The notes below the pieces were generated by a model. It worked only from the letters and a program-made list of their open reading frames with translations, was not told the DNA's origin and made no database searches. A stretch of 45,552 bases of DNA, from the NCBI GenBank assembly GCA_022616275.1, contig JAKEFB010000305.1, positions 1 to 45,552 of the forward strand, given 5' to 3'. Source of the stretch: Chloroflexota bacterium. GTDB lineage: Bacteria; Chloroflexota; Anaerolineae; Promineifilales; Promineifilaceae. A program made the translations under genes and the position numbers. Positions 1,117 through 40,349 of this stretch are shown in pieces (the stretch's first letter is position 1; each line of letters opens with the position of its first letter).

Positions 1117-2148
1117 TTACTGCAGCGGCAGGGGGAGCTGCCAATGCTTGCCGCTGTCGTTGACCCACATCCGGCCGACCCACTTGACCCAGTTCACCCC
1201 GCGCTGCCCAGAGGCCACCAGCCGGGCCGGGAAGCCGTGGCCGTGGCTCAGCGGCTTACCACCTACGGCCGTAGCCAGCAAGTAGCCCTGCGCCTCGGCC
1301 AGCCAGAAGCGCCGCCTGTAGCCGGAGACAGCCTCAAAAGTGACGCTGCGGGCGCTTTCTTTGACCCCCGCCAGCTCCAGCAGCCGGGCCACCGGCACGC
1401 CCCGCCAGATTTGCTCCGAGTACCAGCCGCCGGTGCAGTCGAGGACAGCCGTTACTTCCCTATCAACCAGCTCCATCAGTTGCTCGTAGGTCAGGACTAG
1501 CGGCCGCTCGACCGCGCCGCCGACCACCAATTGCCAGCGCGCCAGGTCAACCGGCGGTGGATGGTCGGCAATCCAGCTCACCTGGGGGAAACGGCCGGTC
1601 AAACTGCCCGTTTCATAAGAGCCGGTAAAGCGCCGCCTGGCGCCCGGTAATTGCAGCAATTCTTTCGACCGGCCGGCGCTCTGCCACAGTAATAAACCGG
1701 CCAGCCCTGTCCCGGCCAGGCGCAAAAAGGCCCGCCGCCCGGCCGCCCGCGGCACGCGCCAGATCCAGCGAAAGTGCCAGGCGTGCCAGGCTAGCAGCAA
1801 AATGAGCGGTACGGCCAGGAAGATGTGGATAGTCACCAGCGTGAAGCCGAACAGGTACTTTGGACCGTCGAAGGTCCATAGCAGCCCGCTGAACAGGGTC
1901 GCCAGGAGCAGCAGCAATAACAGGGCAAAGGCCAGCCGCCGGCCGTTAAGCCCTGTGCCCCGCTGGTACACCCCCAGAATGATGCTCCCCTTCCATAGCA
2001 GAAGAAAGACGATGGCGTAAGCGCCAATGCTGTGCAGCCACAGCAGCCAGCGATTGGCCGCCAGGCCGTTGATAAAACCGAAAAAACCGGTTATAAGTTG
2101 CCCTATCAGCAACACAAGCAGGGCCACATTAGCCCACGGATGGCGCAT
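1117..2148 (-). CDS. Membrane-anchored molybdopterin-dependent oxidoreductase (sulfite-oxidase/MsrP-like catalytic domain fused to N-terminal His-rich TM domain)
   Basis: 343-aa ORF; N-terminal multi-TM segment with conserved His, C-terminal Mo-pterin oxidoreductase-like region (…GGWYSEQIWRGVPVARLL…GYLLATAVGGKPLSHGHGFPARLV…); start codon overlaps stop of upstream DsbA gene at 2148. Confidence 0.75.
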   Translation of the reverse strand: MRHPWANVALLVLLIGQLITGFFGFINGLAANRWLLWLHSIGAYAIVFLLLWKGSIILGVYQRGTGLNGRRLAFALLLLLLLATLFSGLLWTFDGPKYLFGFTLVTIHIFLAVPLILLLAWHAWHFRWIWRVPRAAGRRAFLRLAGTGLAGLLLWQSAGRSKELLQLPGARRRFTGSYETGSLTGRFPQVSWIADHPPPVDLARWQLVVGGAVERPLVLTYEQLMELVDREVTAVLDCTGGWYSEQIWRGVPVARLLELAGVKESARSVTFEAVSGYRRRFWLAEAQGYLLATAVGGKPLSHGHGFPARLVASGQRGVNWVKWVGRMWVNDSGKHWQLPLPLQ

Positions 2149-4088: not shown

Positions 4089-4251
4089 TCCGTATACTCC
4101 CACATGTTCGTCAAAACGGGCCGGGGTTGCCGAACGAGCCAACCAGGCCGGCCGGGCGGTGTGCAAGCTTCAATGTTCCGTGGGGTGGCAGGCAACACAC
4201 GGCCGCCCCGCAAGAATTATGGCATATTGGGAGGGCGGTCGCAAGGAGGAA

Positions 4252-9949: not shown

Positions 9950-12900
9950 ATGAATATATCCGGCCTGCTCGACATCTTTGACCAGTTGCCGGCTTACCAG
10001 GCCTTCCAGGCTGCGGTAACCGGCGATTCATCGCTGCCACCACTGGGGCTGCCCCGCAGCGCCCGGCCGCCGCTGCTGGCCCGCCTTTTTGCCGATAGCC
10101 GGCGCACCATCCTCTTTGTCACCAGCCGGGTAGACGCCGTGCCCCTCTGGCAGCAGGCCTTAGAAGCTTGGCTGCCGGCCGGCTACCCGGTCACGCGCCT
10201 GCCCGAGCCGACGCCGCTGCCCTACGAGCGCGGTCCCTGGAGCGACCGCGTCCGCCACGGCCGGCTCGCTGTCCTGGCCCGCTTGGCGGCCGGCGAGCAC
10301 CCCCTGCTGCCCGGGCATAGTGACCCCTTACTGGTCCTGACCTCAATACGGGCCTTATCCTACAAAACGCTACCTAAGCGCCGCTTTATGGCTATGACCC
10401 GTGTCCTCCGGGCCGGCCAGGTGATTGACCTGGAGAGGCTGATCGAAAGCTGGCTGGAAGCCGGTTACGAATCGGTCAGCGTGGTCGAGGCGCCAGGCCA
10501 GTTCAGCCGGCGCGGCGGCATCCTGGACATTTATCCGGCCGGCAGCACCTACCCGGTCCGGGTGGAACTCTTTGGTGACGAAATTGAGACACTACGCGCC
10601 TTTAACCCGGCCACCCAGCGCTCCATAGACGTAGCCAGCGGCAACCTGGACCACGTACTCATTCCGCCGGCCCGGGAAATGCTGCCGGAGGACGCCCGGC
10701 CGCTGGGCCAGCGTTTGCAAACGGTCGTCTCTAAACGGGAAAGCGATCTGCCGTCCTGGGAAGACGACGTTCCCGGCCTGGCCCTGGGGGCGCTGTCGCC
10801 TAACCTGGAGTATTACCTGCCCCTGGCCTATTCCCATCCCGCCGGCCTGCTCGACTACCTGCCGGCCGGGGCCCTGGTGGTTTTTGACGATCTGGCCGAA
10901 GTGGCCGAAGCGGCCGACGAGCTACAAGCCCACGCCAGCCAGTTAGCCAACGAGCAGCCCGGCCTGCCGCCGGGCTACCCCAATCCTCTCTTCACCTGGG
11001 ACGAGTTGTCCGACCGGCTGGCCGGCCGGGCCTGCCTGGTGCTGGGCGAGGGAGTGGAAACAGAGAGCGCCCATCCTTCGGCGCTGGCCGAGGCCTTCCA
11101 GCCTGGGCCGCGTTATGGTGGCCAGGTCCGGCCGTTCTTGTTGCAATTGCGCTATGCCCAACGGGAGAAGGAGCGCACCGTCGTCGTCAGCCGGCAGGCC
11201 CACCGCCTGGCCGACCTGTGGCGAGAAGAAAGTGGCGCCGCGCTCGCTCTATCAAAGAACGGATCCACGCCAATCGAGCAGGTGGACCGCCTGCCGCCGG
11301 AAGGGACCCTCACCTTTGTCCAGGGCAGCCTGGCCGAGGGCTTCGCCCTGGAGCGGCGGGTGGAGGTTTCCCCGTATCGCGGCCCGGAGCGGGACAGGAT
11401 TTTGCTTAACCTGCTGACCGACGCCGAAATCTTTGGCTGGAGCCGGCCGGCGCCGCGCCGCCGCACCACGCCCCGCCCCTTGGCCCCGGAAGCGTACTAC
11501 GCCGACATCAACTCGGGCGATTACGTCGTCCACCTGGAGTTCGGCATCGGCCGCTTCGTGGGCCTGGTGGTGCGCAACATTGGCGGCATGGACCGGGAAT
11601 ACCTCCAGGTCCGCTATGCCAACAGTGACGTGCTCTACGTGCCTGTCCACCAGGCCGACCGCCTGAGCAAGTGGATCGGCCCTGACGACCGGCCGCCGGA
11701 CATTCACCGCCTGGGAGAAAAGACCTGGCGCCGGACCAAGGCCAAAGCTCAGGAAGCGGTGGACGAGCTGGCCGACGAGCTGCTGGAGTTGTATGCCGCC
11801 CGGGAAACGATTCCCGGCCACGCTTTTGCCCCGGATGGCGAATGGCAGGCCGAATTGGAGGCCAGCTTCCCCTACCAGGAAACGGAAGACCAGTTGCGGG
11901 CCATTGGCGAGGTCAAAGCCGACATGGAGCGGCCGTACCCCATGGACCGGCTGGTCTGTGGCGACGTGGGCTATGGCAAGACGGAGGTCGCCCTGCGGGC
12001 AGCCTTTAAGGCAGTCATGGACAATAAGCAGGTGGCCATCCTGGTGCCGACCACCGTGCTGGCCCAGCAACACGTCAACACCTTCCGGGAGCGATTGAAA
12101 ACATTCCCCGTTACCGTCGAAATGTTGTCCCGCTTCCGCACCCCAGCCCAACAGGAGCAAATAATCAAGAAGCTGCGCGAGGGTAAAATTGACATCGTCA
12201 TTGGCACCCACCGGCTGCTCTCTGACGACGTGTCGTTCAAGGACCTGGGGCTGTTGATCATTGACGAGGAACAACGCTTTGGCGTAGCCCACAAGGAAAC
12301 GCTCAAGCAATTGCGCACCGAGGTGGACGTGTTGACCATGACGGCCACGCCCATCCCGCGCACCCTCTACCTGAGCCTGGCCGGCGTGCGCGACGTCAGC
12401 ATCATTGACACGCCCCCGGCCGACCGGCTGCCGGTACAGACCTACGTCGGCGAGACCGAAGACACGCTTATCCGGCGGGCCATCCTGCGGGAGCTGGACC
12501 GGGGCGGCCAGGTCTTTTACGTCCACAATCGCGTCCAGACCATTAACAACGTCTATGCTAAACTCACTCACCTGGCGCCGGAAGCCGTCATTGCCATTGG
12601 CCACGGCCAGATGAACGAGCGCGACCTGGAAGAGGTGATGGTCCGCTTTGTAGAGGGGGAGATTGACGTGCTGTTGAGCACCACGATTATTGAAAGCGGG
12701 CTGGACATTCCCAACGCCAACACCCTGGTCGTGGACCGGGCCGACCAGTTTGGCCTGGCCCAACTGTACCAGTTGCGCGGCCGGGTCGGCCGGGGGGTGC
12801 GCCGGGCTTACGCCTATTTCCTGCATTCCCCCTGGAAGCGGCTGAACGCCGACGCCCAGGCTCGCCTGGAGATCATCGCTTCCCAGACCGAGCTGGGAGC

Positions 12901-28652: not shown

Positions 28653-30809
28653 TCAGGATTGGGGCGTGTGAAAGCGCAGGGCCGGGTCGCCTAGCAGGTT
28701 AAAGGTGTGAATGACGTCCTTGAGAAATTCGTCGTCGGCTCCGGCGGTCTTGGCCATTTGCAGCGCCTCGCCCAACGTTTGCGCCTGGCCTTCCAGCAAG
28801 ACCTGGTAAAAGACCTCGGCCAGGGGGAGCTGCTGGATGGTCAGGGAGCGGCCGGAGGGGGCCACGGCCGCCACCACACCACCATCTTCGGCCCACAGCA
28901 ACGTTTCCGCCAGCGCGTCGGCGTCGGGATGGTTGAAGTAGCCGTTCAAGCAGGTGAAAGTGGTAAAAATGGGCAGGCGTTCCCCGTTAATGAGCGTCTC
29001 CGCATCCTCGGCCTGGAAGACCCGCTCGTCGCCCCAGACTTCTATGCTGCCGTGCCCGACGTAGTTGATAATACCCACCCCCTGGTTGAGGGCGCTAATG
29101 ATCGCGTCGCGGATCTCCTCGTTTTCAGACATGTACAGTTTTTGTGTCTCGTAGCCAATCTCTCCCAGGTCGCCGGCCAGGTCGTCGGAAGCTTCGTCGA
29201 AATCTTTTTCGTCGTCGGCCACCAGCAAGGCCCGGTTGAGCCACTCGGTTTCGGCTGCTCGTTCGTAGGCCAACGTCTTATTGACCATTGTCGCCAACTG
29301 GCCGGCGGTCTGGGCCGGAAAACGGCCGATGGCCAGCTCTGGGGATAGAGAGTTATCGTCGAAAATGGTGAACCAGGTGTCGCTGGCCACGTAACCGGCA
29401 AACTCGGTGTACACCAGGTAAGTAGGCAGCAAGTTCTGGTTTTTGCCCTGAGAAAAATTGTAAAGGTCGTAGGAAGCGTCGCCGACCAGGAGGACAAAGC
29501 GTGGGGCCGGCTCCCACTCGGCCACGGCGTAAGCCAGGAAGTCGCGAATGGCCTGTGGCGTCCGCCGGCCGTAGCCAAACTCGTCAAAGACCTGGCTGGC
29601 CAGGACGGCTTCGACCTGCCAACCCTGCAAGCGGCGGTACTCCAGCAGTGGGTCGAGGAGTGGTAAGAAACCCTCGACGTCGGCGACGATGGCCACGTAA
29701 TCGGCGCCCCGGCCGCCGCCGGTCAGCGGCTCCCAGGATGGGGCCGGGCTAATCTCCGGCCGGATGACGTGCTCCTGGAGAAAAACAAAATAGGCCCGCT
29801 CCTGGCCCCGGCCGGCAAAGGCCAGTTCTTCGCCGGCGGCCTTGGTTCCGGCCAGTCGGACCGGCGCGGCCGGGTCGGTCACGTCAAATACCAGCGCATC
29901 GCCGTCCACTCCGGCCACGCGCAGGGTAGGGGCGCTGCTGCGGAACCAGAGGCTATCGTCCTGGACCTCCAGGCGGCCGTCGTAATCCAGGCGGACCCAG
30001 TCAATGTACAGCGCTTCGCCGGCTGCCCCGGTATCTCCAGGGGCGTTAATGGTCAGAACGTTCCCCGCAGGGAGCAGGGCGCCGGCCTCCAGGGAGACAG
30101 TAATGGTTTTCTGGGTAATACCGTCCCAATAATAATCGTCCGGGAGTTTGGCGCCGTTAAGCAGAAGCTCAATGTGGTGGTCGGGCTCTTGCTGGGCCCG
30201 GTTGTTGGACCAGATGCGGATCGTAAGCTGGCCGGAGCCACCGGCCGGCTGGATGCCTTCCAGGGCCACGTCCAGCGAATTAGGGGCAAATAACCGTTTA
30301 CCGAGCCAGACGTCGTCGCCGGCCGCCTGGGCCAGGAACGTCTCGTTCTCCTCCCACGTTTGCCTTCGCCAGGCCACGGATTCGGCCTCTTCGCCAGGAG
30401 CGGCCGGGTCCTCCTCCATCAACTGGCCCCGCCCAGGCGCCAGCCAGTAAACCGCCGGCGCGTCCAGGGTGTCGGTCACCGGTTGGGCGTAAAAATAAAG
30501 CGAAGCATTGCGCCCCTCGCCGGCCACATAAAAAGGCACCGGCTGCCCGTCGCGAGTCAACTGCAACGCGCCGGCCGAAAGTCCCTCCACGGGCAGGTTG
30601 GCCTGGCGCAGGTCGCCGGCCGTCACAACGGCGATACCAGATTGATACACGGTCAGCCGCAGGGCCTGGGGCGCTTCACCCAAGGGTAGCGGCTTGATAT
30701 CCAGGGGATCGTCTTGGATACGGCTGCCCAGGAAAACGTAGGCGGCCGCGCCAAAGAAAAAAATGGTCAGACCGGCCAGGCCAGCCAGGATCAGGTGTTG
30801 TCTATTCAT
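28653..30809 (-). CDS. Peptidase C25 (gingipain) family protein
   Basis: ORF 28653..30929; start ATG 30809 (MNRQHLILAGLAGLTIFFF signal/TM anchor); catalytic-domain motifs …NYVGHGS…W… and …TCLNGYF…. Confidence 0.8.
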   Translation of the reverse strand: MNRQHLILAGLAGLTIFFFGAAAYVFLGSRIQDDPLDIKPLPLGEAPQALRLTVYQSGIAVVTAGDLRQANLPVEGLSAGALQLTRDGQPVPFYVAGEGRNASLYFYAQPVTDTLDAPAVYWLAPGRGQLMEEDPAAPGEEAESVAWRRQTWEENETFLAQAAGDDVWLGKRLFAPNSLDVALEGIQPAGGSGQLTIRIWSNNRAQQEPDHHIELLLNGAKLPDDYYWDGITQKTITVSLEAGALLPAGNVLTINAPGDTGAAGEALYIDWVRLDYDGRLEVQDDSLWFRSSAPTLRVAGVDGDALVFDVTDPAAPVRLAGTKAAGEELAFAGRGQERAYFVFLQEHVIRPEISPAPSWEPLTGGGRGADYVAIVADVEGFLPLLDPLLEYRRLQGWQVEAVLASQVFDEFGYGRRTPQAIRDFLAYAVAEWEPAPRFVLLVGDASYDLYNFSQGKNQNLLPTYLVYTEFAGYVASDTWFTIFDDNSLSPELAIGRFPAQTAGQLATMVNKTLAYERAAETEWLNRALLVADDEKDFDEASDDLAGDLGEIGYETQKLYMSENEEIRDAIISALNQGVGIINYVGHGSIEVWGDERVFQAEDAETLINGERLPIFTTFTCLNGYFNHPDADALAETLLWAEDGGVVAAVAPSGRSLTIQQLPLAEVFYQVLLEGQAQTLGEALQMAKTAGADDEFLKDVIHTFNLLGDPALRFHTPQS

Positions 30810-30817
30810 GGGCGACG

Positions 30818-31831
30818 TTAACTCTTGCGACGGGACAGCCAGTACCAGGTGGTAGCGCCACCGCCCAGAACCAGCAGTACGCCGGAGATGAAAACCAACA
30901 GACCCACAGTGGCGCTGCGGTTGAGCCATTCGCCCTCTTGTCCTGAGGTCTGGTTATCGCCGGCGCTCTCCTGGCCATTGCCGCCAATGGGCGAGGCGGC
31001 GATAGCCGTGGCGGTAGCCGACCGGGCCGAGGTCACCACCTCAGCCACCGTATCCGGCGGGTTGCCGGGAGCGCCCAGGCTGGTGACGCTGACCGGGTCC
31101 TGGGAATCGCCAGTGCCGGCCGCCACTTCCTCCGCTGGCGGCTCCACGGTCTCGCCGGGGCCAGTCGCCGGCAACGCCGGCAGGCTGTCGTTTGGTTGGT
31201 TGCCAACCGGTGAGGCTGCCGGTGGGGCGCTTTGCGCCGGCCGGGTGGGGGTGGCGCTGGACAGCGCCGGCGCGGCCGTGGCCGACGGGGCAGACGTGTT
31301 GGCCGGGGGGCGGGTGGTGGTGGGCGTCGCTTCGGCCGTGTCGCCGGGCTGGACCGTTGGGCTGGGCGTGGGGGTCCGGGTGGGCGTGGCGGTGTTGTTG
31401 CCGGGAGGCGGCTCGGTGGGAATCGTGCTCCCGCCGCTCAACGAGGCTGTGTCTGGGAGGGAGAACTCACTGTTGCCGTAATTATCTACAGACTCCAGCC
31501 AGTAGGTGTAAACAATGTTGCCCTGGACGGCGGAATCCTCCCACTCGTAAAGAGCGCCTGTCGGTCCATTACAGACCTGGCAGGGAATGAGGGTATTGCC
31601 GTTAATTTTGATGGCGTCGTCCAGGTCGCCGGTCTCGCTGCGATGAATGTTAAAGCCGAGGTGGTCAATTTCTGAAGCGGTTTCCCATTCCAGGGTAATG
31701 GCGCTCGGCCCGCTCTGGGCGTCAAAATAGAGTAACTCGACGTTGGCCATGGCCAGGTCCAACGATAAGGCGGCCGCCAGCAAGATCACGACAGGGACCA
31801 GCAGCCACTTTAACTGTTTAAAAGATGACAT
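30818..31831 (-). CDS. Secreted FN3-like domain protein with Pro/Thr/Ala-rich stalk, C-terminal TM helix and RRKS tail
   Basis: 337 aa; signal peptide; domain ITLEWETASEIDHLGFNIHR…YTYWLESVDNYGNSE (paralog of 38514..38876); C-term VGLLVFISGVLLVLGGGATTWYWLSRRKS. Confidence 0.7.
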   Translation of the reverse strand: MSSFKQLKWLLVPVVILLAAALSLDLAMANVELLYFDAQSGPSAITLEWETASEIDHLGFNIHRSETGDLDDAIKINGNTLIPCQVCNGPTGALYEWEDSAVQGNIVYTYWLESVDNYGNSEFSLPDTASLSGGSTIPTEPPPGNNTATPTRTPTPSPTVQPGDTAEATPTTTRPPANTSAPSATAAPALSSATPTRPAQSAPPAASPVGNQPNDSLPALPATGPGETVEPPAEEVAAGTGDSQDPVSVTSLGAPGNPPDTVAEVVTSARSATATAIAASPIGGNGQESAGDNQTSGQEGEWLNRSATVGLLVFISGVLLVLGGGATTWYWLSRRKS

Positions 31832-32444
31832 TCTCTACTCCTCTACTCCCTGTTGCCGGCTGGCTGGCCAGGCCGGCGGCAACGGCCAACAGGGCAGCCC
31901 ACCCGTACAACAGGCGGCGCACCAGGCGGGTGGGCAGGTTGGGCAGTCCCTGGGCGGCAAACCGCCCGCCGGCCATCAAAGATGGCCAGTTGTCCTGCCC
32001 CTCATTGTAAACCGGCGCGCTAAAAAGGCGAATATCCAGCCTGGCCAGGCCGGCCAGGGAGTGGTTTAACCGGCGGCCGGGCCCCTCGCTCAGGCTCAAG
32101 AGGCGGTTCTGGCGGCGGCGGGCCACCACCCGGCCAACCAGGCTGGCTTCGGCGACTGGCCGGTCAAAGTGCCGTTGCCGGTCTCCCCGCGTCACCAGGC
32201 GGCGCCGGCCGTTCTGCTCCAGGCAACCCCAGTAGCGGTGGGTCACCAGCTCGCCCTGGCCCATCACCACGATCACGTCACCGGGCTGCAGTTCCTCCGG
32301 CCGGGCCGGGGCAATGCCGATCTGGTCGCCCCGGCGCACCAGGGGGGCCATGCTGTTGCTGGCAATGGTCAGGAAAGGCAACTGGCCACGGGCCATCGTT
32401 TCGCGCAGCAGCTCGGCCAGGAGCGACGGTTCGACGTTGGCCAT
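31818..32444 (-). CDS. Peptidase S24/S26 (signal peptidase I-like) family protein
   Basis: 208 aa; SNSMAPLVRRGDQI Ser-box resembling SGSMEP/GDSM of S26/S24; hydrophobic segment near C-terminus. Confidence 0.6.
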   Translation of the reverse strand: MANVEPSLLAELLRETMARGQLPFLTIASNSMAPLVRRGDQIGIAPARPEELQPGDVIVVMGQGELVTHRYWGCLEQNGRRRLVTRGDRQRHFDRPVAEASLVGRVVARRRQNRLLSLSEGPGRRLNHSLAGLARLDIRLFSAPVYNEGQDNWPSLMAGGRFAAQGLPNLPTRLVRRLLYGWAALLAVAAGLASQPATGSRGVENVIF

Positions 32445-32452
32445 ACCCTTCT

Positions 32453-35400
32453 TTACGGCTTGTTGATCGCCGGCAGGAAGGTTTCCAACACCTGCTCGGG
32501 AATATGGAGCTTCATGGCCGGGTCGCCCAGGAGGATAAAAGTATCCTGCAGATCGTCGTAGATGCCCGGCGGCGCGTTGTTAAACAGATTCAACTTACCC
32601 CCGTAGGTGGCATGGCCCAGCACATGATCGCCGTTGACGAAGACAGTCGTGTAAAACCCTTCCAGGAGGTAATCGTGCCCGGTCTGGACCTGGAAACCGG
32701 TCGGGGCGAAGCTGGCTACGGCCCCGGCCCCGTTCAGTTTCATCAATGTTTCCGACAGGCCTTTGCTTGTCCCAGGCGTATGGTACCAGCCTTCCAGGCA
32801 GGTCATGGGTAGCATGATTGGCGTGCGGTCGCCGTTGTTCAGGTTCAGGGCCAGGTTGGTGTCGAAAAATGTTTCCCCGCCCCAGACCTGGGTGCCGCTA
32901 TGGCCGGTGTAGATGACGAAGTTCTGGCCCAGGTTGAAATGGGCAACGAGGCGCTCTTGCATGTTGTTGCCGGGAGGGGTGTTAATCATGGTTGCGTAAT
33001 AAGGCTCAATCACCGGGTAGGTAGCATTGGGGAAGCAGGCAGCAGGGGCATAATAGAGCCGGTGCAGCAGTTGGCCGGCCGGGAAGTGGTTGGCAATAAA
33101 GTTATTGGTGACGGCAAAAAAATCACCGGCCAGGTCTGGAATACAAGTTGGCGGTGGATTTCCATTGGGGACGATGCTGTTATCGGCGACGAAGAAGTGC
33201 CGGCCGTGCCAGCCGGGGCTCAACGGGCTTGTCTCGTAGGTGATGATCTTATTGACCATCACCGTCAATTCGGCCGGGGTCTGGACCGGCAGGCGGCCGA
33301 GGAGCATGTCGGCCAGGTCGTTGCCGTCGAAATCTACGTACTGGTTATCGGCCGCCGCTTCGCCGAGCTTGCTGTCAACGCCGGAGCGCAGGTAGACGGG
33401 GACCCTATTGCTGGTCCCGTTTTGGCCGAGCACGTTGCGGTGGTCGTAGCTGGCGTCGCCGGCCAGGAGCACGTATTCCCGGTCGCCTTGCCAGGAGTTG
33501 TAGGCGAATTCGAGGAAATCTTTGATCGCTTCCGGCGCATAGAGGCCATAGCTCCACTCGTCAAAAATGTCCTGGACGTAGACGGTTTTTACCGCCAATC
33601 CCTGGCCGGCGCGCAGCGTGCGCAACGGAGTCAGGGCGGCGTCCAGGCTGGGGTCGGTGATGATGATGTAGTCGGCCGTATGGCTGGTGCTGCTCAACAG
33701 GGGGCTGGGCAGCGTATCCTTGACAATGGCCAGCGGGCTGAGACGGGCGCCGGCTGTGGTCAGTTGGTAAGCTGTTGGCCCCGATGTCGTGCGGTGGAAG
33801 GTCGCAACATCACCGGCGGCCGGTACCACCTGGATGGTCGGGTTCAACGGATCGGTCACGTTGTAAATCTGGACGTTGCTCCCAACCGTGAAGCCGCTGG
33901 TCGCAAAGGTCCATGTTCCGGCCGTGGGTTGGCTGAAGGCCAGGCGATTGCTGACGGCCACAAATTGCTGGCGGGGGGTAACTTCCACCCAGTTGACCAG
34001 CATCCGGTGGGCGTTGTTCGTGGGGTCGCCGTCATTGTCCAGAGCTTTCACGTGCATAATATTCGGGCCGTCGAGTACTGCCGAAGAAGGCGCGTTGACC
34101 TGGTAAAGGTAAGAAACGTCGGCCGTGCCCGCACCGGTAAACTGGCCGGTGCCAAGCAGCGTGCCGTTGAGCCGCACTTCAAAGACGTGCAGATCGTTGA
34201 GCAGGTGGCCCCATAGCTCGACGGCTACAGGCACGTTGTATACGCCGCCGGCCTTGTTATTCACGGTAAAAGTAACCGTCAGGGTGTCCTCGTAGGGGGG
34301 GGCGGGGGGCGGGGGGGGTGGCTGGTTGCCGGCGAGAGGGCCGCCCCAGAACCAGTGGTCGGTCAGGTCGCTCTTAGGGATCGGGGAGAGGTAGCTTGTG
34401 TCTGTTTCCAGGTGCAGCAAGGGCGAATGGTAATCAGGCGTCGTTCCAGGGGCGGAGTCGCTGGCTGCAGTTATGCGTAGCCCGTTTGGCCCGCCGGTGG
34501 AGTAGGTGAGCCAATAGACGTTAGTCGTGGTCTCCTGGGTCTTGATGGCCTGGCCGTAAAAGGCAATGGTATCGCTGCTGCCGAACGTGCCGTCACCGCC
34601 GTCTTCGACGCGAATGCGGATTTCCTGGTCCAGGTAGCACATCCGGATCTTGCTGGAAGGTACGCTGCCGGGGAAGCCCTGGGCAGCCAGTTGGGCGTGG
34701 CTGAGGGCATAAATGCCAGACTGGTCAAGGGTGATGCGGTAAGCGTTGGCGTCCATGCAGGGGGAGATTTGCGGCGGGGCCTGGCTCATATCGGGGGCTT
34801 CACGCCAGGCGCGGGCCTGCTCGTAGTTGAGCAGGTGGTCACCGAGAATTTTCTCAAAAGCGGGGCCTTCCGGCCGGGAACCGGCCGGGGTGGGGCGGCC
34901 GTCAGGATAATCAAAGCGGACGTGGATGCGCAGGCTGGTGTAGACCGTGAGGCGCTGTTGGGCCGGGTTGGCCAGCACCGGCCGGACCCAGACCTGGACC
35001 ACCCGTTGGTCGCGCAAACGGGAGGGCTGGCTTAGTTCCACCGGCCCGGCCGGGAACAGGCTGTCCTGGCTATAGGCGGCCTCGTCAACCGGGTAGCTGG
35101 TGGCGAATTCAGGGACGGAGTTGGGATTATCCCAATCGTAGGAAACGAGTTCCTGGTGGGCGGCCGGCAGCACGGCCACCCCCTCAAGCTGGAAGCTGTC
35201 GGCCTCCAGCAGGGAAACGGATGGCGCTGCCCCAGGCGGCAAGGCGACCAGGAAACTGGTGTGAGGTAAATCTGGCCGGCCGGGCTGCCCCAGATTTCCG
35301 TAACCGGGAAGGCGGATGCGCTCGAAACGGCCGTCCCCGGTCGTCACGGCCATTCGCTCCAGGGCCGGGGGAAGCACCTCGAAAATCAGGCCTTCGCCGG

Positions 35401-35554
35401 TGGATTCAATCACAGTGACACCATCGCGGTCGGGCTGGCCCGGCCCGGCCCCGGCTGTTTCCGGCCGAGGGAGCAGCAAAAAAAACAAAATGACAAGCAG
35501 GCCACCGCCGAAAACGAAGAGATGGCGGGAGTGGTGATAAACGGAAAAACGCAT
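32453..35554 (-). CDS. Large peptidase C25 (gingipain) family protein with N-terminal propeptide-like and C-terminal catalytic domain
   Basis: ORF 32453..35620; start ATG 35554 (MRFSVYHHSRHLFVFGGGLLVILFFLLL); …VIYTGHSGTQVWGGE… and …PMTCLEGWYH… motifs. Confidence 0.8.
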   Translation of the reverse strand: MRFSVYHHSRHLFVFGGGLLVILFFLLLPRPETAGAGPGQPDRDGVTVIESTGEGLIFEVLPPALERMAVTTGDGRFERIRLPGYGNLGQPGRPDLPHTSFLVALPPGAAPSVSLLEADSFQLEGVAVLPAAHQELVSYDWDNPNSVPEFATSYPVDEAAYSQDSLFPAGPVELSQPSRLRDQRVVQVWVRPVLANPAQQRLTVYTSLRIHVRFDYPDGRPTPAGSRPEGPAFEKILGDHLLNYEQARAWREAPDMSQAPPQISPCMDANAYRITLDQSGIYALSHAQLAAQGFPGSVPSSKIRMCYLDQEIRIRVEDGGDGTFGSSDTIAFYGQAIKTQETTTNVYWLTYSTGGPNGLRITAASDSAPGTTPDYHSPLLHLETDTSYLSPIPKSDLTDHWFWGGPLAGNQPPPPPPAPPYEDTLTVTFTVNNKAGGVYNVPVAVELWGHLLNDLHVFEVRLNGTLLGTGQFTGAGTADVSYLYQVNAPSSAVLDGPNIMHVKALDNDGDPTNNAHRMLVNWVEVTPRQQFVAVSNRLAFSQPTAGTWTFATSGFTVGSNVQIYNVTDPLNPTIQVVPAAGDVATFHRTTSGPTAYQLTTAGARLSPLAIVKDTLPSPLLSSTSHTADYIIITDPSLDAALTPLRTLRAGQGLAVKTVYVQDIFDEWSYGLYAPEAIKDFLEFAYNSWQGDREYVLLAGDASYDHRNVLGQNGTSNRVPVYLRSGVDSKLGEAAADNQYVDFDGNDLADMLLGRLPVQTPAELTVMVNKIITYETSPLSPGWHGRHFFVADNSIVPNGNPPPTCIPDLAGDFFAVTNNFIANHFPAGQLLHRLYYAPAACFPNATYPVIEPYYATMINTPPGNNMQERLVAHFNLGQNFVIYTGHSGTQVWGGETFFDTNLALNLNNGDRTPIMLPMTCLEGWYHTPGTSKGLSETLMKLNGAGAVASFAPTGFQVQTGHDYLLEGFYTTVFVNGDHVLGHATYGGKLNLFNNAPPGIYDDLQDTFILLGDPAMKLHIPEQVLETFLPAINKP

Positions 35555-35831
35555 AAAGTAATTACCCCTAGACAGCAACAAGGGCCAGATAATTGGTTTG
35601 ATTATCCAGCCCTTGTCCACTTAGTAAGGGTAGACACCCTCCTGAGAGCTGTATACGGTTGTCGTCACCAGGGACTACAAACCCTGTTTTCTACCACTTA
35701 CCTGGTCCACGATTTACCCAACAACGCACTAAGCCAGCCAACTCTGGGGGAAATCGCCGCAAAGCTGCACGAATGCAGCCTGGAGTAGCTGGGCGTTGTC
35801 AGGGTGAGTGGGTCGAAGAAAGAAAAAATTC

Positions 35832-35972
35832 TTAGCTGCTGGTAACCGTGCAGTTGTCGCCCGTGCCGGTCTTACCGTTGACAGGGTCCTGAGCATCGCA
35901 GGTACCGGCAATGCTTTCCATCAATTCACGATGGACAACAGCGGGCTTTTCATAAACTTTCTTTTCGTTCAT
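35832..35972 (-). CDS. RiPP precursor peptide candidate A1 (46 aa)
   Basis: Not in ORF track (too short). Manual reverse translation: MNEKKVYEKPAVVHRELMESIAGTCDAQDPVNGKTGTGDNCTVTSS; GGAGGA RBS 6 nt upstream on minus strand; 39 C-terminal residues identical to A2. Confidence 0.7.
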   Translation of the reverse strand: MNEKKVYEKPAVVHRELMESIAGTCDAQDPVNGKTGTGDNCTVTSS

Positions 35973-36016
35973 CTGAATCCTCCTTTAAATTGACTAAAAA
36001 TAATAAGACAAAAGGC

Positions 36017-36181
36017 CTAGCTGCTGGTAACCGTGCAGTTGTCGCCCGTGCCGGTCTTGCCATTGACAGGGTCCTGGGCGTCGCACGTGCCGGCAATGCT
36101 TTCCATCAATTCACGATGGACGACGGCCGGTTTTTCGTAAGCCTCTTTTTGCTCGTCAGTGGGATTAGTTGGATTAGGCAT
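36017..36181 (-). CDS. RiPP precursor peptide candidate A2 (54 aa)
   Basis: Manual reverse translation: MPNPTNPTDEQKEAYEKPAVVHRELMESIAGTCDAQDPVNGKTGTGDNCTVTSS; start overlaps 3' end of radical SAM gene by 8 nt (GGAGTG upstream). Confidence 0.7.
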   Translation of the reverse strand: MPNPTNPTDEQKEAYEKPAVVHRELMESIAGTCDAQDPVNGKTGTGDNCTVTSS

Positions 36182-37253
36182 GAGTCACTCCTTTTTCTAA
36201 ATATGCCTGGCGTCGCAGCCGCGCTTCGCGGTAGGCAACTGAGGAGCAGCCAAGCATGTCACCATCTTCAAACGCTGCCGTACCATGGCAGCGCACACAA
36301 AACTGGCGAAGCTCGCAAGTGGCGCAAACAGGTAAGTTGGCCAGATTGAGGTTGGTGGTCTGCTCCCACACCGGCGATTCTTTCCAAATCTGGTGGAGTG
36401 GCGCCTGGCGCACGTTGCCGGCCGAGACACGAGCGCCCACACAGGTGTAAATCTCACCATAGGGGCCAATGTCCAGGCTGTTCATGCCAATACTACAAAA
36501 CCGAAAATCGTCGTTATAGGGGTACAGGTGCCAGGTCTCCGGGGAAACGCGTTCTCGCAAAAAATCCAACAATTGGTCGTCTGTCGGCCGGTGTTTTAGG
36601 GGCGAAAGGTCGCCGGTATGTTTGGGGATAATGGTCAGGTCGTATTGAAAGGTAATACCCAGGTCAGCGGCCAACTGTTTCAGAGCCTCAATTTGATGGA
36701 TGTTTTCCTTCATGACCGGCGTTTTAATAATGCAACGAACGTTACGCTCTAAAAGCAATTTGACCGCGCGGAGAGTCAGGTCAAACGAGCCTGGCACCTG
36801 AGTAATACCGTCGTGCGTTTCCGCATCTACCCCATAGACGCTTAACTCAACGACGACGGGTTTAATGGCTGCTATCTTATCAGCAACAGGGGGTTTGATC
36901 AAGATACCGTTGGTAAAGAAGCGAACGGCAAAACCCTTCTTGCGGGCGTACCCGGCGATCTCAAAAATATCCTTGCGCAAGAACACTTCGCCGCCGGAAA
37001 AGCTGATTGTCAGCGCCCCCAACTCGGCCAATTGATCAATAACCCCTTTGGCTTCCTCGGTCGTCAGCTCGCCCGGCAACTGAGAGCCTGGGGGCAGCAC
37101 GTCCAGATAACAATGGGTGCAGCGCTCGTTGCAACGGTAAGTGATTTCCCAATGGGCGGACAACAGGCGGTGTTCTTTGCGCGTGCGCCGCAAAATTTCT
37201 TTGTAAGCGTCGGGGCGGGTATTGGTGTTAACGTCTACGTACTGATCGGTCAT
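36174..37253 (-). CDS. Radical SAM enzyme with C-terminal SPASM-like Cys-rich domain (RiPP maturase candidate)
   Basis: 359 aa; CNERCTHC (CxxxCxxC) at residues ~41-48; C-terminal cysteines …FCSIGMNS…YTCVGARV…LPVCATCELRQFCVRCHG…. Confidence 0.85.
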   Translation of the reverse strand: MTDQYVDVNTNTRPDAYKEILRRTRKEHRLLSAHWEITYRCNERCTHCYLDVLPPGSQLPGELTTEEAKGVIDQLAELGALTISFSGGEVFLRKDIFEIAGYARKKGFAVRFFTNGILIKPPVADKIAAIKPVVVELSVYGVDAETHDGITQVPGSFDLTLRAVKLLLERNVRCIIKTPVMKENIHQIEALKQLAADLGITFQYDLTIIPKHTGDLSPLKHRPTDDQLLDFLRERVSPETWHLYPYNDDFRFCSIGMNSLDIGPYGEIYTCVGARVSAGNVRQAPLHQIWKESPVWEQTTNLNLANLPVCATCELRQFCVRCHGTAAFEDGDMLGCSSVAYREARLRRQAYLEKGVTHA

Positions 37254-37256
37254 TGC

Positions 37257-37547
37257 TTACGCTTCCCTTGCATCACTGAAAACTAACACCCGGTGGTTGG
37301 CCAGTTGAGTCAGGAAATCAACCACGTCTTGCCGGGCCTGTTCGGCCGTCACCTCATATTCGGCCACAATTACCCCGGCAATGTCGGCCACAGTGCGGCT
37401 ACCATCGGCCAACTCAAAAACACGCGATCCGACACTGTTCAAAACGTTGACTTCACTGGCGTCGGATAAAATGAGAACGGCTTCACCGTCTATAACCCGA
37501 CCGGCCGTCTGAGGATGCGGCCTGGGGTATTTCTGCCATATCTCCAT
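37257..37547 (-). CDS. PqqD-family protein (RiPP recognition element / peptide chaperone)
   Basis: ORF 37257..37613; likely start MEIWQKY… at 37547; …GEAVLILSDASEVNVLNSVGSRVFELADGSRTVADIAGVIVAEYEVTAEQARQDVVDFLTQL… typical PqqD. Confidence 0.7.
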   Translation of the reverse strand: MEIWQKYPRPHPQTAGRVIDGEAVLILSDASEVNVLNSVGSRVFELADGSRTVADIAGVIVAEYEVTAEQARQDVVDFLTQLANHRVLVFSDAREA

Positions 37548-38376
37548 GAATAACCTTCCAAAAACCATCGTCACGCTTGAAGTGAAGTTCCTGCACTGGG
37601 ACCAGCCGGGCAATCTGATTGCAGACCGAGAGCAGCGTGCCGCTCAAGCTTAGCTCCCGGACGACAAAGGGCGAGGCTGCTACCAGGTCAGCCACTCCTT
37701 TGACGTGGGGAATGGGTTTCAGATAATGGGAAACATCCTGCTTCAAGCGAAAAAGCCCTCTCAATGGCGCTTGTAAATTGGCGCGCGGCGCATCGGAAAA
37801 CTCGCCTCGGAAAGGAACGCCATACAGAGTACAGCCTTCTTCGCCGGCGCGAATGATCACCAGGTCGTCACTGACCACGTGGGCCGCCCTGGCCGCCAGA
37901 CGGGAAGTGGTGGTCTTGCCCGCGCCGCTGGGGCCAAAGAAAACGTAACCCTGGCCATCCCGGATCACGCCGGCGGCGTGCAGCAGCAAGGCTTGGTTTT
38001 TCAGACACAACCAGGCATAGAGAACCCGCAGGAAGTTCTCTACCTGAGCTTCGGGAGCCATTTCCAGGACGCCGCGGCCGGCGACCAGATCTACTTCGCC
38101 CTGTTCCTGGTAGGAACAGTAGACCAGGCGATTGGCTTCGTAGCTGGCCTGAATGATCCAGGCCCCGGGTTCTGGTGTAATGAACAGCGCGCCAGGCGTA
38201 ACTTTTAAGGTAACGGTAATAAGCGGCGGCTCTGTAGGGCTAAGAAACTCCTGGTAATGGCTGTAGAGCCGGCCAACAACGGCCTGGTCATCCGTCTCCA
38301 AAGCAACGACAAAATCAGCGATGTTGATGAGAAAACGATGGCGACTTTGTTCGTTAATTGTCAAGAGAACCCTCAC
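37483..38376 (-). CDS. HprK-related kinase-like protein (HPr kinase C-terminal-like P-loop domain)
   Basis: 297 aa, GTG start; …LLLHAAGVIRDGQGYVFFGPSGAGKTTTS… Walker A in HprK-C-like context. Confidence 0.65.
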   Translation of the reverse strand: MRVLLTINEQSRHRFLINIADFVVALETDDQAVVGRLYSHYQEFLSPTEPPLITVTLKVTPGALFITPEPGAWIIQASYEANRLVYCSYQEQGEVDLVAGRGVLEMAPEAQVENFLRVLYAWLCLKNQALLLHAAGVIRDGQGYVFFGPSGAGKTTTSRLAARAAHVVSDDLVIIRAGEEGCTLYGVPFRGEFSDAPRANLQAPLRGLFRLKQDVSHYLKPIPHVKGVADLVAASPFVVRELSLSGTLLSVCNQIARLVPVQELHFKRDDGFWKVIHGDMAEIPQAASSDGRSGYRR

Positions 38377-38513: not shown

Positions 38514-38876
38514 TTATCCTCCGGCCGTCAAAGCAATAGGGTCCGTGCGGGTGGCGTTGCCGTTACGGTCAATGGTTTCGAGCAGGTAATAGTAAGTCTT
38601 GCCCCGGACTATGTCTCGGTCTACGTAGGTATGCCGGTCACCAATAAAGGGATCAGCCGCCGGCGGAATTAGCTCGTTATTAACTTTAACGAACTCACCA
38701 TCCGCTGCTTCGGCCCGATAAAGGTTGAAACCAATAATGTCCAGCTCGCTCTCTGTTGTCCAGGTGATAGTAAGCTCGGCCGGCCGCAGGACACAGGCTA
38801 CCAGGCCAGCCATACTGGTAGTGAAACAAAGGAAGGTGAGCAGGAGGTGATAGACAGATGATAACTTCTTGAACAC
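38514..38876 (-). CDS. Small secreted FN3-like domain protein (paralog of N-terminal domain of 30818..31831)
   Basis: Within ORF 38514..39080; probable GTG start ~38876 giving signal peptide VFKKLSSVYHLLLTFLCFTT…; LTITWTTESELDIIGFNLYR…YYYLLETIDRNGN. Confidence 0.55.
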   Translation of the reverse strand: MFKKLSSVYHLLLTFLCFTTSMAGLVACVLRPAELTITWTTESELDIIGFNLYRAEAADGEFVKVNNELIPPAADPFIGDRHTYVDRDIVRGKTYYYLLETIDRNGNATRTDPIALTAGG

Positions 38877-38899
38877 GTGTGGATTGTAAAAAAGGAGTT

Positions 38900-38958
38900 G
38901 CAAACTCGCAACCTTGCAAACTCGCAACCTCGCAACCTCGCAAACTCGCATACTTGCC
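38900..38958. repeat. Octanucleotide tandem repeat (GCAAMCTY)x7 in divergent intergenic region
   Basis: GCAAACTC GCAACCTT GCAAACTC GCAACCTC GCAACCTC GCAAACTC GCATACTT GCC. Confidence 0.8.
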
Positions 38959-39008
38959 CCCTGCCCTTTGCACCCTGGCCAACTCACCTTACAATCGAAG
39001 TGACGGTT

Positions 39009-40142
39009 ATGAAGATTGCTTTTGTCTCCGCCCTTGATCCCCGCTATCACGTTGATTACTTTTCGGGTATCCCCTACCATCTGTTTCGGGCGCTGGCCCG
39101 GCGGGTGGAGATTGTGCCTGTGCCTGTGGCGGCCGAAAGGCCACCGGCCTGGTATCGCCTCTACACCCGGCTGCGGCGAAGGCTGGCCGGCCGGCCGGAC
39201 ACCTGGGGGCTGCGGCCGGGTGTGCTACAGCGCCTGGCCCATGGCGCGGCCGCGGCCGTCGCTCAGTCTGGGGCCGACGTCGCTCTATCTATTGGCCAGG
39301 GCTGCCTGGCCTTTTGGGCCGGGCCGGTCCCGATGGCCTCGTTTTCTGACGTGCTCTATGGCGGTCTCAACCCCTTTCCCGACCAGCAAGGGCAGCCGCG
39401 CCCCCTGGCCCAAGCCTATCGGGAGCAACTGGCTCGCATTGCCCAACGAGCCGCCGATAACGCCGTCCGCGTTTTTATTACGTCCGAATTTGCCTTGCAA
39501 GGAGCGTTGGCCTTTGGCACGCGCCTGCCCCGGGAAAAGGTAGTGATCACCCAGATAGGGGCTAACTTCGAGGAGTGGCCGCCAGCTCCCGGGCCACGCC
39601 GGCCGCCGCCGCCGTTAAAACTATTGTGGGTGGGTACTGGTTGGGCTGGCAAGGGTGGCGAAGATTGCCTGGCCGTCCTCGACGCTCTGCACCGGGCCGG
39701 CGTGGAAGCTGAGTTGAGCCTGGCCGGCCGGGTCCCGTCCGGGCTGGCCCGTCCCCACGTCGTCTACCACGGTTTTCTGCATAAGGATGTGCCCGAGGAA
39801 CAGCAGCGCCTGTTGGCCCTTTACCGGGAGGCGCACCTGTTCCTGCTGCCCACCCGCAAGGACTTCACTCCCTGCGGGCTGGCCGAAGCGGCGGCGATGG
39901 GCCTGCCGGCCGTCACCACGCTGGTGGGTGGCATTCCCGGCATGTTTGCCGCCGACGAAGTGGTTCTGCTAGATATAGCTCACTATCGAGAGCAGGCTCC
40001 GGCCGCCATTAACCAACTGCTTCAGGACGGCCGGTTGGAAGAAATGGCCGGCAAAGTCCGCCACCGTTTCGAGTCTACGCTCAATTGGGATACGATTGCT
40101 GCTATAATAATTAGTGAGTTAGAACGTGCTCTTAAGAGGTGA
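39009..40142 (+). CDS. Glycosyltransferase family 1 (GT4-type)
   Basis: ORF 38877..40142; conserved-looking start MKIAFVSALDP at 39009; C-terminal GT1 region …LLPTRKDFTPCGLAEAAAMGLPAVTTLVGGIP…. Confidence 0.8.
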   Translation: MKIAFVSALDPRYHVDYFSGIPYHLFRALARRVEIVPVPVAAERPPAWYRLYTRLRRRLAGRPDTWGLRPGVLQRLAHGAAAAVAQSGADVALSIGQGCLAFWAGPVPMASFSDVLYGGLNPFPDQQGQPRPLAQAYREQLARIAQRAADNAVRVFITSEFALQGALAFGTRLPREKVVITQIGANFEEWPPAPGPRRPPPPLKLLWVGTGWAGKGGEDCLAVLDALHRAGVEAELSLAGRVPSGLARPHVVYHGFLHKDVPEEQQRLLALYREAHLFLLPTRKDFTPCGLAEAAAMGLPAVTTLVGGIPGMFAADEVVLLDIAHYREQAPAAINQLLQDGRLEEMAGKVRHRFESTLNWDTIAAIIISELERALKR

Positions 40143-40145
40143 AAC

Positions 40146-40349
40146 GTGAACGTCCGTTGTTCTTACTGTAGCCATACCTTCACTCTATCACGGGAGTACA
40201 TGGCCCAGGCTGTGGCCGGGGCGGCCGAGAAGCGCCAGAAGTATCACGCTATGGAGTGCATCAACTGCCGCAAGCTGATTAAAGTGTCGGTTTCCCAGAT
40301 GAGGCGGTACGTCCCGGAGCCGGAAAGCCCGGCCGGAGAGGAAGGGTGA
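40146..40349 (+). CDS. Small zinc-ribbon protein (CxxC…CxxC)
   Basis: 67 aa; GTG start 3 nt after GT stop, AAGAGG just upstream; Cys5/Cys8 and Cys38/Cys41. Confidence 0.5.
   Translation: MNVRCSYCSHTFTLSREYMAQAVAGAAEKRQKYHAMECINCRKLIKVSVSQMRRYVPEPESPAGEEG

Follow-up and report, generated by a model that had tools for sequence, protein, structure and literature searches.

Two tandem genes for putative RiPP precursors in a Chloroflexota genome and their linkage to PqqD, radical SAM/SPASM, kinase-like and C25 peptidase genes

The described systems closest to the locus reported here are the phosphorylated lasso peptides, the sactipeptides and ranthipeptides, the pathways of pyrroloquinoline quinone (PQQ) and mycofactocin, and the SynChlorMet cassette. 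The locus lies in a 45,552-nucleotide stretch of DNA from a Chloroflexota metagenome-assembled genome (NCBI GenBank assembly GCA_022616275.1, contig JAKEFB010000305.1, positions 1 to 45,552; hereafter the window) and holds two short tandem genes, A1 and A2, beside genes for a PqqD-family protein, a radical S-adenosylmethionine (SAM)/SPASM enzyme and a kinase-like protein. Uncharacterised radical SAM peptide loci are common, and PQQ and mycofactocin are peptide-derived cofactors. In the characterised sactipeptide and ranthipeptide synthases the recognition domain is, as far as is known, fused to the enzyme; at the present locus it is a separate protein. Database models exist for cassettes of ScmC-type, PqqD and radical SAM genes; to our knowledge no substrate or product of such cassettes has been described, nor is the TIGRFAM text known to define a substrate for SynChlorMet.

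The phosphorylated lasso peptides are known in more functional terms. Lasso leaders carry a YxxPxL motif at positions -17 to -12, which is required for binding by the B1 recognition protein and also for leader removal and kinase action (PMC10368454; PMC6784204). PadeK and PsmK, two enzymes of the HPr-kinase family, place a phosphate on the C-terminal Ser of a precursor that still carries its leader, and BsfK, a lasso kinase from Bradymonas, is accelerated by the recognition protein (PMC6993621; PMC12639078; PMC10368454). Mutagenesis showed that the BsfK residues H148-G163-G166-G168-K169-S170-D186-D187, which are common to known lasso kinases, matter for function (PMC10368454).

We propose, at a probability of roughly 0.7, that A1 and A2 are translated precursors of a ribosomally made, enzymatically modified peptide (RiPP). 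Because open reading frames (ORFs) constrained as protein are here linked genetically both to a recognition protein and to an enzyme of the radical SAM/SPASM kind, the locus is by definition a radical SAM RiPP locus dependent on a RiPP recognition element (RRE).

Constraint on the twin genes and their family

A1 (35832..35972, minus strand; 46 residues, MNEKKVYEKPAVVHRELMESIAGTCDAQDPVNGKTGTGDNCTVTSS; NCBI L0332_31385) and A2 (36017..36181, minus strand; 54 residues, MPNPTNPTDEQKEAYEKPAVVHRELMESIAGTCDAQDPVNGKTGTGDNCTVTSS; NCBI L0332_31390) are already called in the NCBI record of the source genome, both as 'hypothetical protein'. Re-translation of the minus strand reproduced both peptides exactly as the initial annotation had derived them. 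Each gene is preceded by an AGGAG-type ribosome-binding site, and the radical SAM gene runs into A2, its stop and the A2 start overlapping by 8 nucleotides. No third copy was found within the window.

The two peptides share an identical C-terminal part of 40 residues counted from a Tyr (YEKPAVV...TVTSS), one more than the 39 first reported; the N-terminus of A2 is longer and unrelated to that of A1, with identity beginning at Tyr15 of A2. Over the 40 shared codons the genes differ at 11 nucleotides, and all 11 differences are in third positions and synonymous, with a probability of about 6e-8 that 11 randomly placed changes would all be so. With 26.3 synonymous sites, the Nei-Gojobori method gave a proportion of synonymous differences (pS) of 0.42, a synonymous distance (dS) of 0.61 and a nonsynonymous distance (dN) of 0. 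The stop codons also differ (TAA and TAG). Among the aligned codons directly 5' of the shared Tyr, the amino acid is changed in four of six (five of seven with the A1 start codon), which places a sharp boundary of constraint at the Tyr. Since every difference is synonymous and dS is 0.61, the copies are old and constrained as protein, and the purifying selection on the peptide that had been suggested from a few codons is borne out, as strong selection, by the codon-level comparison.

The family to which A1 and A2 belong is small. We found 31 homologues, all unnamed, among 5.8 billion proteins; 33 loci among 185,579 species genomes, from Anaerolineae (Promineifilaceae, Ardenticatenaceae and Ca. 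Trichofilum) and, more distantly, Acidobacteriota; and 34 hits in a profile search of 1.84 billion cluster representatives. The family comprised 92 distinct sequences, and signature statistics were taken over 91 or 92 of these. Pfam and NCBIfam models gave chance-level matches only for the 51 family peptides scanned. Identity across the first 33 sequences was 64 to 93%, core included, and conservation of the amino acid sequence among relatives, which the initial annotation had made a test of peptide function, held across some 90 distinct homologues, whose sources are Chloroflexota, Acidobacteriota and metagenome contigs without assignment.

The family signature opens with K-x-Y-E-K-P-x-[VI], ahead of which the N-terminus varies as freely as it does between A1 and A2. 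The distance from the Tyr to the first Cys is exactly 18 residues in 90 of 91 sequences. Three residues before this Cys stands Ala (89/91), and five residues before it a small residue (S, A, G or T; 87/91). Exactly two Cys are present in 87 of the 92 members; the loop between them is variable, with 2 to 17 residues (6 to 17 in all sequences except one), and five to nine residues follow the last Cys. The final residue is Ser in 86 of 91, and within the core only the two Cys and this terminal Ser are conserved. A conserved leader with a more variable core is as expected of RiPPs made by an RRE-dependent radical SAM/SPASM enzyme.

Several genomes carry two copies. In the window and in the loci that we denote L001 (9971..10348), L016 (5255..5654), L007 (8750..9123) and L008 (9749..10135), both copies specify the same peptide from the Tyr on, even where 12 to 19 synonymous sites differ between them; when precursors from two genomes are compared at a like synonymous distance, four to nine residues differ. 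The L001 pair has 19 synonymous differences and one non-synonymous difference, the L016 pair 18 and none. Within one genome, identity of the copies seems to be maintained at the level of protein and not of DNA. A1 and A2, which give one and the same core, probably serve dosage. The L007 and L008 pairs differ by 3 to 4 nucleotides only, fewer than separate those two genomes, which suggests some gene conversion, and the acidobacterial pair in L037 has diverged at 12 non-synonymous codons. Orphan precursor-like ORFs with the full signature (YEKPAV...C...C...S-stop) occur in L033 (about 10001..10117), L034 (about 10001..10114) and L038 (about 10001..10111), with no radical SAM, PqqD or ScmC-like gene within 10 kb; these may be second, remote copies.

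The 91% DNA identity of the tandem copies over 120 nucleotides, together with the near-identical pairs in L007 and L008, would also be expected if the repeat were a recent product of duplication or gene conversion without peptide function, or a conserved RNA or regulatory element. We consider this highly improbable, given the wholly synonymous differences at a dS of 0.61, the retention of amino acids across two phyla while the DNA diverges, the fact that 86 of 91 sequences preserve the reading frame, the place of the stop and the Ser at the end, and a ribosome-binding site for each copy. The RNA or regulatory alternative had been named at the outset as one way in which the peptide reading might fail; an Rfam scan of the whole window matched no family, and the RNA explanation is therefore without support. 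On the substitution pattern and the conservation across phyla, a dead duplication or RNA element was excluded.

Maturation genes and a proposed pathway

Upstream of A2 lie the genes for the presumed maturase and for a discrete recognition protein. The PqqD-family protein, or RRE (37257..37547, minus strand; about 96 residues, open frame to 37613), matched Pfam PqqD at 5.7e-15, above the gathering score. Its best solved relative is the lasso RRE TbiB1 (2.8e-06), and its best NCBIfam match, below the cut-off, is the lasso PqqD chaperone; the lasso PqqD models scored 35.9 and 45.1, each against a cut-off of 80. By analogy with lasso leaders, the YxxPx[VI] of the precursor family is the kind of motif that PqqD-type recognition domains bind, and a leader boundary after Gly23 of A1 would put Tyr, Pro and Val at exactly -17, -14 and -12. 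The predicted A1 leader runs from M1 to A22 or G23 (35904..35972, minus strand) and the predicted core from T24 to S46 (35835..35903, minus strand); the corresponding A2 core would be 36020..36088 (minus strand). The initial annotation had taken the conserved stretch for a leader or recognition helix. Its role as a recognition stretch is upheld by the invariant YxxPx[VI] at a fixed 18 residues from the first Cys; the helix is unsupported, as AlphaFold2 returned a low-confidence model of the free precursor (predicted local distance difference test score, pLDDT, 61) without any helix. Low-confidence models are usual for free precursors of RiPP type.

The radical SAM/SPASM enzyme (36174..37253, minus strand; 359 residues) matched Pfam Radical_SAM at 2.2e-23 and SPASM at 6.5e-07. 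Its CX3CX2C motif (C41, C45, C48) and the SPASM cysteines C253, C271, C319 and C322 are kept across both phyla, and the nearest solved sequences are SkfB, the best match, and PqqE. No NCBIfam family cut-off was reached.

Also upstream is the gene of an ScmC-like P-loop phosphotransferase (37483..38364, minus strand; 293 residues as annotated by NCBI, open frame to 38376). Pfam PF27840 'ScmC' has a precomputed match for the identical protein P0032 and for all of its listed homologues. Against solved structures, single-sequence and profile searches gave generic P-loop matches only, and the kinship with HPr kinase and PEPCK came solely from fold comparison, which assigned the PEPCK/HPr-kinase fold. 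Conserved residues are H133, G148, G151, G153, K154, T155/T156, D170 and D171. Compared with the published BsfK motif, their order is identical and their spacing is identical up to the Lys.

A further candidate enzyme is a Sec11/SipW-type signal-peptidase-like protease (31818..32444, minus strand; 208 residues). It scored 53.1 bits against TIGR02228, the archaeal-type signal peptidase I (cut-off 51.85), and an acidobacterial homologue in L026 scored 55.1. The best solved relatives, human SEC11C and SEC11A, aligned through the catalytic Ser, His and Asp motifs, and the SxSMxP, HR and GD motifs are kept in 21 loci. A hydropathy scan found no transmembrane-like segment in either the window protein or the L026 homologue, and thus no N-terminal membrane anchor; on this ground it is probably a soluble, re-purposed member of its family. 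Type I signal peptidases classically show a small-x-Ala (-3/-1) pattern at their cleavage sites. Because the conserved small-x-Ala site ahead of the first Cys fits this pattern, the homologue is the natural candidate for the leader peptidase.

These parts can be arranged as a pathway whose steps differ in strength. The N-terminal 22 to 23 residues are likely to be the leader, with YEKPAV bound by the PqqD protein, which would present the peptide to the other enzymes. Somewhat more tentatively, with the odds falling slightly short of even, the radical SAM/SPASM enzyme would modify the core at its pair of invariant Cys; thioether cross-links like those of sactipeptides or ranthipeptides are the likeliest form. 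Much the same tentativeness attaches to phosphorylation of the C-terminal Ser by the kinase-like protein while the leader is still on, as for paeninodin and pseudomycoidin. That the cytoplasmic signal-peptidase-like protease cuts the leader after the small-x-Ala site, two residues before the first Cys, is possible and a little more doubtful again. A route of the lanthipeptide kind, in which the kinase-like protein would act in elimination followed by Cys addition, was dropped: no lyase or cyclase is present, and the radical SAM enzyme would be left without a role.

Several points weigh against reading A1 and A2 as RiPP precursors matured in this way. Each chemical step is read from homology and conservation. 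The maturase scored far below its curated relatives (StsB 135 against a cut-off of 625, AlbA 89/850, SkfB 57/300, MftC 141/265), as did the L026 homologue with PapB (58/340), and since all curated cut-offs are missed by far, its family does not fix its chemistry. The sactipeptide or ranthipeptide class that had initially been considered for the peptides is on these scores unsupported. There are two Cys only and no invariant acceptor, with Asp or Glu four residues after the first Cys in just 56 of 91 sequences; a plain disulfide loop, together with a different radical SAM reaction, would match the data equally well. We know of no RiPP precedent for a leader peptidase of signal-peptidase type. 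Among the Pfam hits of the window ORFs and in the syntenic loci there was no transporter, which is hard to reconcile with the C25 peptidase described below having a role outside the cell. The ScmC-like protein had no Pfam Hpr_kinase match and resembles HPr kinases at the level of fold and motif only, its Lys-to-Asp-Asp spacing is one residue shorter than that of BsfK, and five of the 91 family members end in a residue other than Ser. Finally, BsfK phosphorylates Ser3 and not a terminal Ser (PMC10368454), and the site of phosphorylation is for this reason not readable from the fold.

Gene linkage, the cell envelope and the purpose of the peptide

We compared 38 loci fetched first and six distant ones added later. 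The precursor gene adjoins the radical SAM/SPASM gene in 32 of the first 38 and in five of the six, in line with the earlier proposal of RiPP precursors beside their maturase, and a discrete PqqD gene is present too wherever the flank suffices. In the 24 Chloroflexota-type loci (L001 to L024), an ScmC-like gene, PqqD, radical SAM, one or two precursors and a C25 peptidase gene occur in this order wherever the contig reaches far enough, followed, given enough downstream sequence, by the signal-peptidase-like gene, an FN3-like protein and a second C25 gene. The neighbourhood in Chloroflexota is beside obg and nadD. Identity of the radical SAM enzyme is 63 to 87% in Chloroflexota and about 30% in Acidobacteriota, with gene order kept in both.

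Elsewhere the set is rearranged. The signal-peptidase-like gene stands directly upstream of the ScmC-like gene in the acidobacterial L026 and L037. In the distant metagenome loci L042 and L043 the C25, precursor, PqqD and radical SAM genes share one strand, with the ScmC-like and signal-peptidase-like genes on the other; L039 has radical SAM followed by the precursor, with C25 on the opposite strand; L040 has radical SAM, precursor and the signal-peptidase-like gene; and in L044 the precursor faces the radical SAM, PqqD and ScmC-like genes. Given enough flank, six components (precursor, radical SAM/SPASM, PqqD, ScmC-like, signal-peptidase-like and C25) travel together, since the distant loci keep the same set in other orders, and the linkage is not an accident of shared ancestry.

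The C25 (gingipain/PorU-like) peptidase gene lies just beyond A1 (32453..35620, minus strand) and encodes up to 1055 residues, its start being uncertain, with Peptidase_C25 at 2.1e-73, Propeptide_C25 at 1e-20 and an N-terminal membrane helix, for which a transmembrane-like segment stands at residues 31 to 54. The second C25 peptidase (28653..30809, minus strand; about 718 residues from the ATG at 30809; Peptidase_C25 at 4e-86) is kept in Chloroflexota loci. Between the second C25 gene and the signal-peptidase-like gene is that of an anchored, secreted FN3-like protein (30818..31831, minus strand; 337 residues) with a Pro/Thr-rich linker, a C-terminal membrane anchor and transmembrane-like segments at both ends, which holds the same position in Chloroflexota loci. 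Directly upstream of the ScmC-like gene is a small lipoprotein-like FN3-like protein (38514..38876, minus strand; GTG at 38876, open frame to 39080), with homologues in nearly all Chloroflexota loci; its lipobox-like sequence is L-V-A-C in the window and L-T-G-C or A-A-G-C in homologues. An FN3-like domain of about 90 residues (W-T-x-E-x-D-x-x-G-F-N-[LVI]-[YH]-R ... Y-x-Y-x-L-E) was observed in the lipoprotein-like protein, the anchored surface protein and an acidobacterial C25 peptidase (L026, 9928..10107); in the two window proteins it had no Pfam match.

The C25 peptidase could act on or with the product outside the cell, by extracellular processing, as a PorU-like transpeptidase that uses the peptide, or as a partner protein. 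A further explanation is that A1 and A2 do not give rise to a secreted bioactive peptide; their modified product would instead be a small subunit, a cofactor, an anchor or a regulator and would have its function at the cell envelope, jointly with the C25 peptidases. A comparable case is QhpC, the small cross-linked subunit of quinohemoprotein amine dehydrogenase, which is matured by the radical SAM enzyme QhpD. This explanation is compatible with all the data, as it shares the precursor status of our preferred reading and differs in purpose. In its favour are the tie of the C25 gene to the maturation genes, seen in both phyla as well as where the gene order has changed, the absence of both transporter and immunity genes from the loci examined, and the fixed housekeeping neighbourhood (obg, nadD) in Chloroflexota with its apparently vertical inheritance. 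The conservation of the whole peptide, core included, is unusual (64 to 93% among the first 33 sequences), the lipoprotein-like and anchored FN3-like envelope proteins are co-conserved, and a discrete PqqD and SPASM pair is found as in PQQ and mycofactocin, with MftC among the better full-length NCBIfam hits. Against it, the C25 proteins carry their own propeptide and a complete catalytic domain, the route of the peptide across the membrane is missing here too, the physical link between peptide and C25 is supposed, and a Cys-Cys loop of 2 to 17 residues with variable sequence would be more usual in a product that diversifies than in a cofactor. On balance we regard a subunit or cofactor role as rather unlikely.

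More than a mobile antibiotic cluster, the system resembles a physiological trait that is passed on by vertical inheritance. A XerC-like integrase gene (27523..28527, minus strand) lies just beyond the second C25 gene; since L001 and L005 carry it at the corresponding site, it probably does not indicate recent mobility. In its fullest form, the proposal would be that the peptide is not an antibiotic and is instead the centre of a vertically inherited envelope system of filamentous Chloroflexota and Acidobacteriota: cross-linked and phosphorylated at its C-terminal Ser in the cytoplasm by a lasso-derived recognition protein and kinase joined to a radical SAM enzyme, freed by a re-purposed signal-peptidase homologue, and then taken up into surface-protein processing or anchoring by PorU-like C25 peptidases, for which it might, for instance, be an acceptor, a small subunit or a regulator. 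We hold this whole chain to be unlikely and offer it as speculation. Among the carriers, Promineifilaceae and Ardenticatenaceae are filamentous bacteria of wastewater sludge.

Other features of the region were noted in passing. About 50 nucleotides past the A1 stop and before the C25 gene is a short hairpin (GGCTGCA-TTCG-TGCAGCT; 35763..35780, minus strand) with a perfect 7-bp stem and a TTCG loop. The 96 nucleotides around it fold at -21.3 kcal/mol with a z-score of only -1.85, which is weak; standing between the precursor genes and the C25 gene, the hairpin may be a partial terminator and lower read-through. Two tandem copies of GGTTGCGAGTTTGCAA (38896..38929, minus strand), flagged as a terminator-like hairpin, are found in the divergent region that separates the lipoprotein-like gene from a GT4 glycosyltransferase gene (38877..40142, plus strand). 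In Chloroflexota a small, conserved zinc-ribbon protein (MNVRCSYC...CINCRK) is encoded between nadD and the locus (window 40146..40349, plus strand; L001 6797..7024, minus strand), and in the acidobacterial L025 and L028 larger proteins downstream of the C25 gene open with a similar M-x-VQCPNCLKRYRL motif. Farther off are a DDE transposase fragment of ISAZ013 type (22891..23538, plus strand) and a 672-residue protein (2148..4166, minus strand) with three DsbA/thioredoxin-like domains (Thioredoxin_4 at 1e-105), which adjoins a protein with a molybdopterin-oxidoreductase domain; no link between it and the precursor locus was seen.

Comparison with known systems

The literature searched, for SynChlorMet or ScmC, for HPr kinases or gingipains with radical SAM RiPPs, and for signal peptidases with RiPPs in Chloroflexi, gave no description of this system, within a coverage that leaves out most subscription journals. 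The precursor family, the kinase-like partner with the terminal Ser, the signal-peptidase-like gene and the obligate C25 peptidase are new features. Of these, all but the precursor family had gone unremarked in the initial annotation, and it is they that make the locus unusual. The family provides a clearly defined substrate family for an ScmC-type/PqqD/radical SAM cassette, and a leader, recognition protein and kinase like those of the phosphorylated lasso peptides, paired here with a SPASM enzyme, would represent a natural modular exchange in peptide maturation. The soluble Sec11/SipW-like enzyme is possibly a new type of leader peptidase and, if so, the first of its kind to act on a RiPP leader. 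The strict cross-phylum link to C25 (gingipain/PorU-like) peptidases was not met in the literature searched, and the predictions for this locus are unusually sharp and testable.

The phosphorylated lasso peptides paeninodin and pseudomycoidin (PadeA/PsmA, B1, PadeK/PsmK), with BsfK, resemble the system in their short precursor, a K-K-x-YxxPx(L/V) leader, a discrete PqqD-type protein, a P-loop kinase with H...GxxGxGK[ST]...DD, and Ser as last residue, which is the phosphosite in paeninodin and pseudomycoidin. Were A1 and A2 themselves lasso precursors of the paeninodin kind, the lasso-like spacing of YxxPx[VI], the proximity of the PqqD protein to TbiB1 and the lasso PqqD models, and the kinase motif with its C-terminal Ser would all be accounted for. 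What stands in the way is the rest of the locus. The Pfam matches of the scanned window ORFs and of the syntenic loci include neither a lasso cyclase (asparagine-synthetase-like) nor a B2 transglutaminase-like peptidase, and radical SAM/SPASM, signal-peptidase-like and C25 genes stand in place of the cyclase and the B2 leader peptidase. The core has two invariant Cys and no conserved Asp or Glu at position 7 to 9 with Gly, Ala, Ser or Cys at position 1 that could form the ring, the lasso PqqD models were matched below their cut-offs only, there is no ABC transporter, and the kinase is kin by fold and motif only. With cyclase and B2 peptidase missing, membership was rejected, and a lasso product is in our estimate very improbable.

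The sactipeptides and ranthipeptides (AlbA, SkfB, StsB, CteB, PapB) have, as here, a radical SAM/SPASM gene beside small Cys-containing precursor genes, often in several copies, and a PqqD-like domain that recognises the leader, a function that is predicted for the present PqqD protein. They differ in that the present maturase misses their cut-offs, the precursors have two Cys only and no conserved acceptor position, and the kinase-like, signal-peptidase-like and C25 genes belong to this system and not to those classes.

PQQ (PqqA/D/E) and mycofactocin (MftA/B/C) likewise rely on a discrete PqqD-family chaperone and a SPASM enzyme acting on a short precursor; they have no transporter, the C-terminal residues of the precursor are strictly conserved, and MftC and PqqE were among the full-length hits of the present enzyme. 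These hits stayed below their cut-offs (141/265 and 91/381), the other pathway genes are not present, and the precursor here has Cys...Cys...Ser, without a conserved core Tyr or Glu pair, in place of Glu...Tyr or Val-Tyr. Membership in either pathway was rejected on scores and precursor sequence.

The SynChlorMet cassette (ScmC, ScmD, ScmE, ScmF) and the HprK-related kinase A/B systems share an ScmC-type P-loop protein, a PqqD homologue and a PqqE-like radical SAM/SPASM enzyme with the locus. Scores here were far below the cut-offs throughout (ScmC 24.7/125, ScmD 28.4/100, ScmE 94.1/400, ScmF 94.1/400), there is one radical SAM gene and not two, and a precursor family is evident; membership was rejected on the scores and the gene count. 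The system is accordingly filed only as a generic RRE-dependent radical SAM/SPASM RiPP system. In composition it is like a hybrid that combines a leader, a recognition protein, a kinase and a terminal Ser similar to those of phosphorylated lasso peptides with a SPASM enzyme as in sactipeptides, ranthipeptides, PQQ and mycofactocin.

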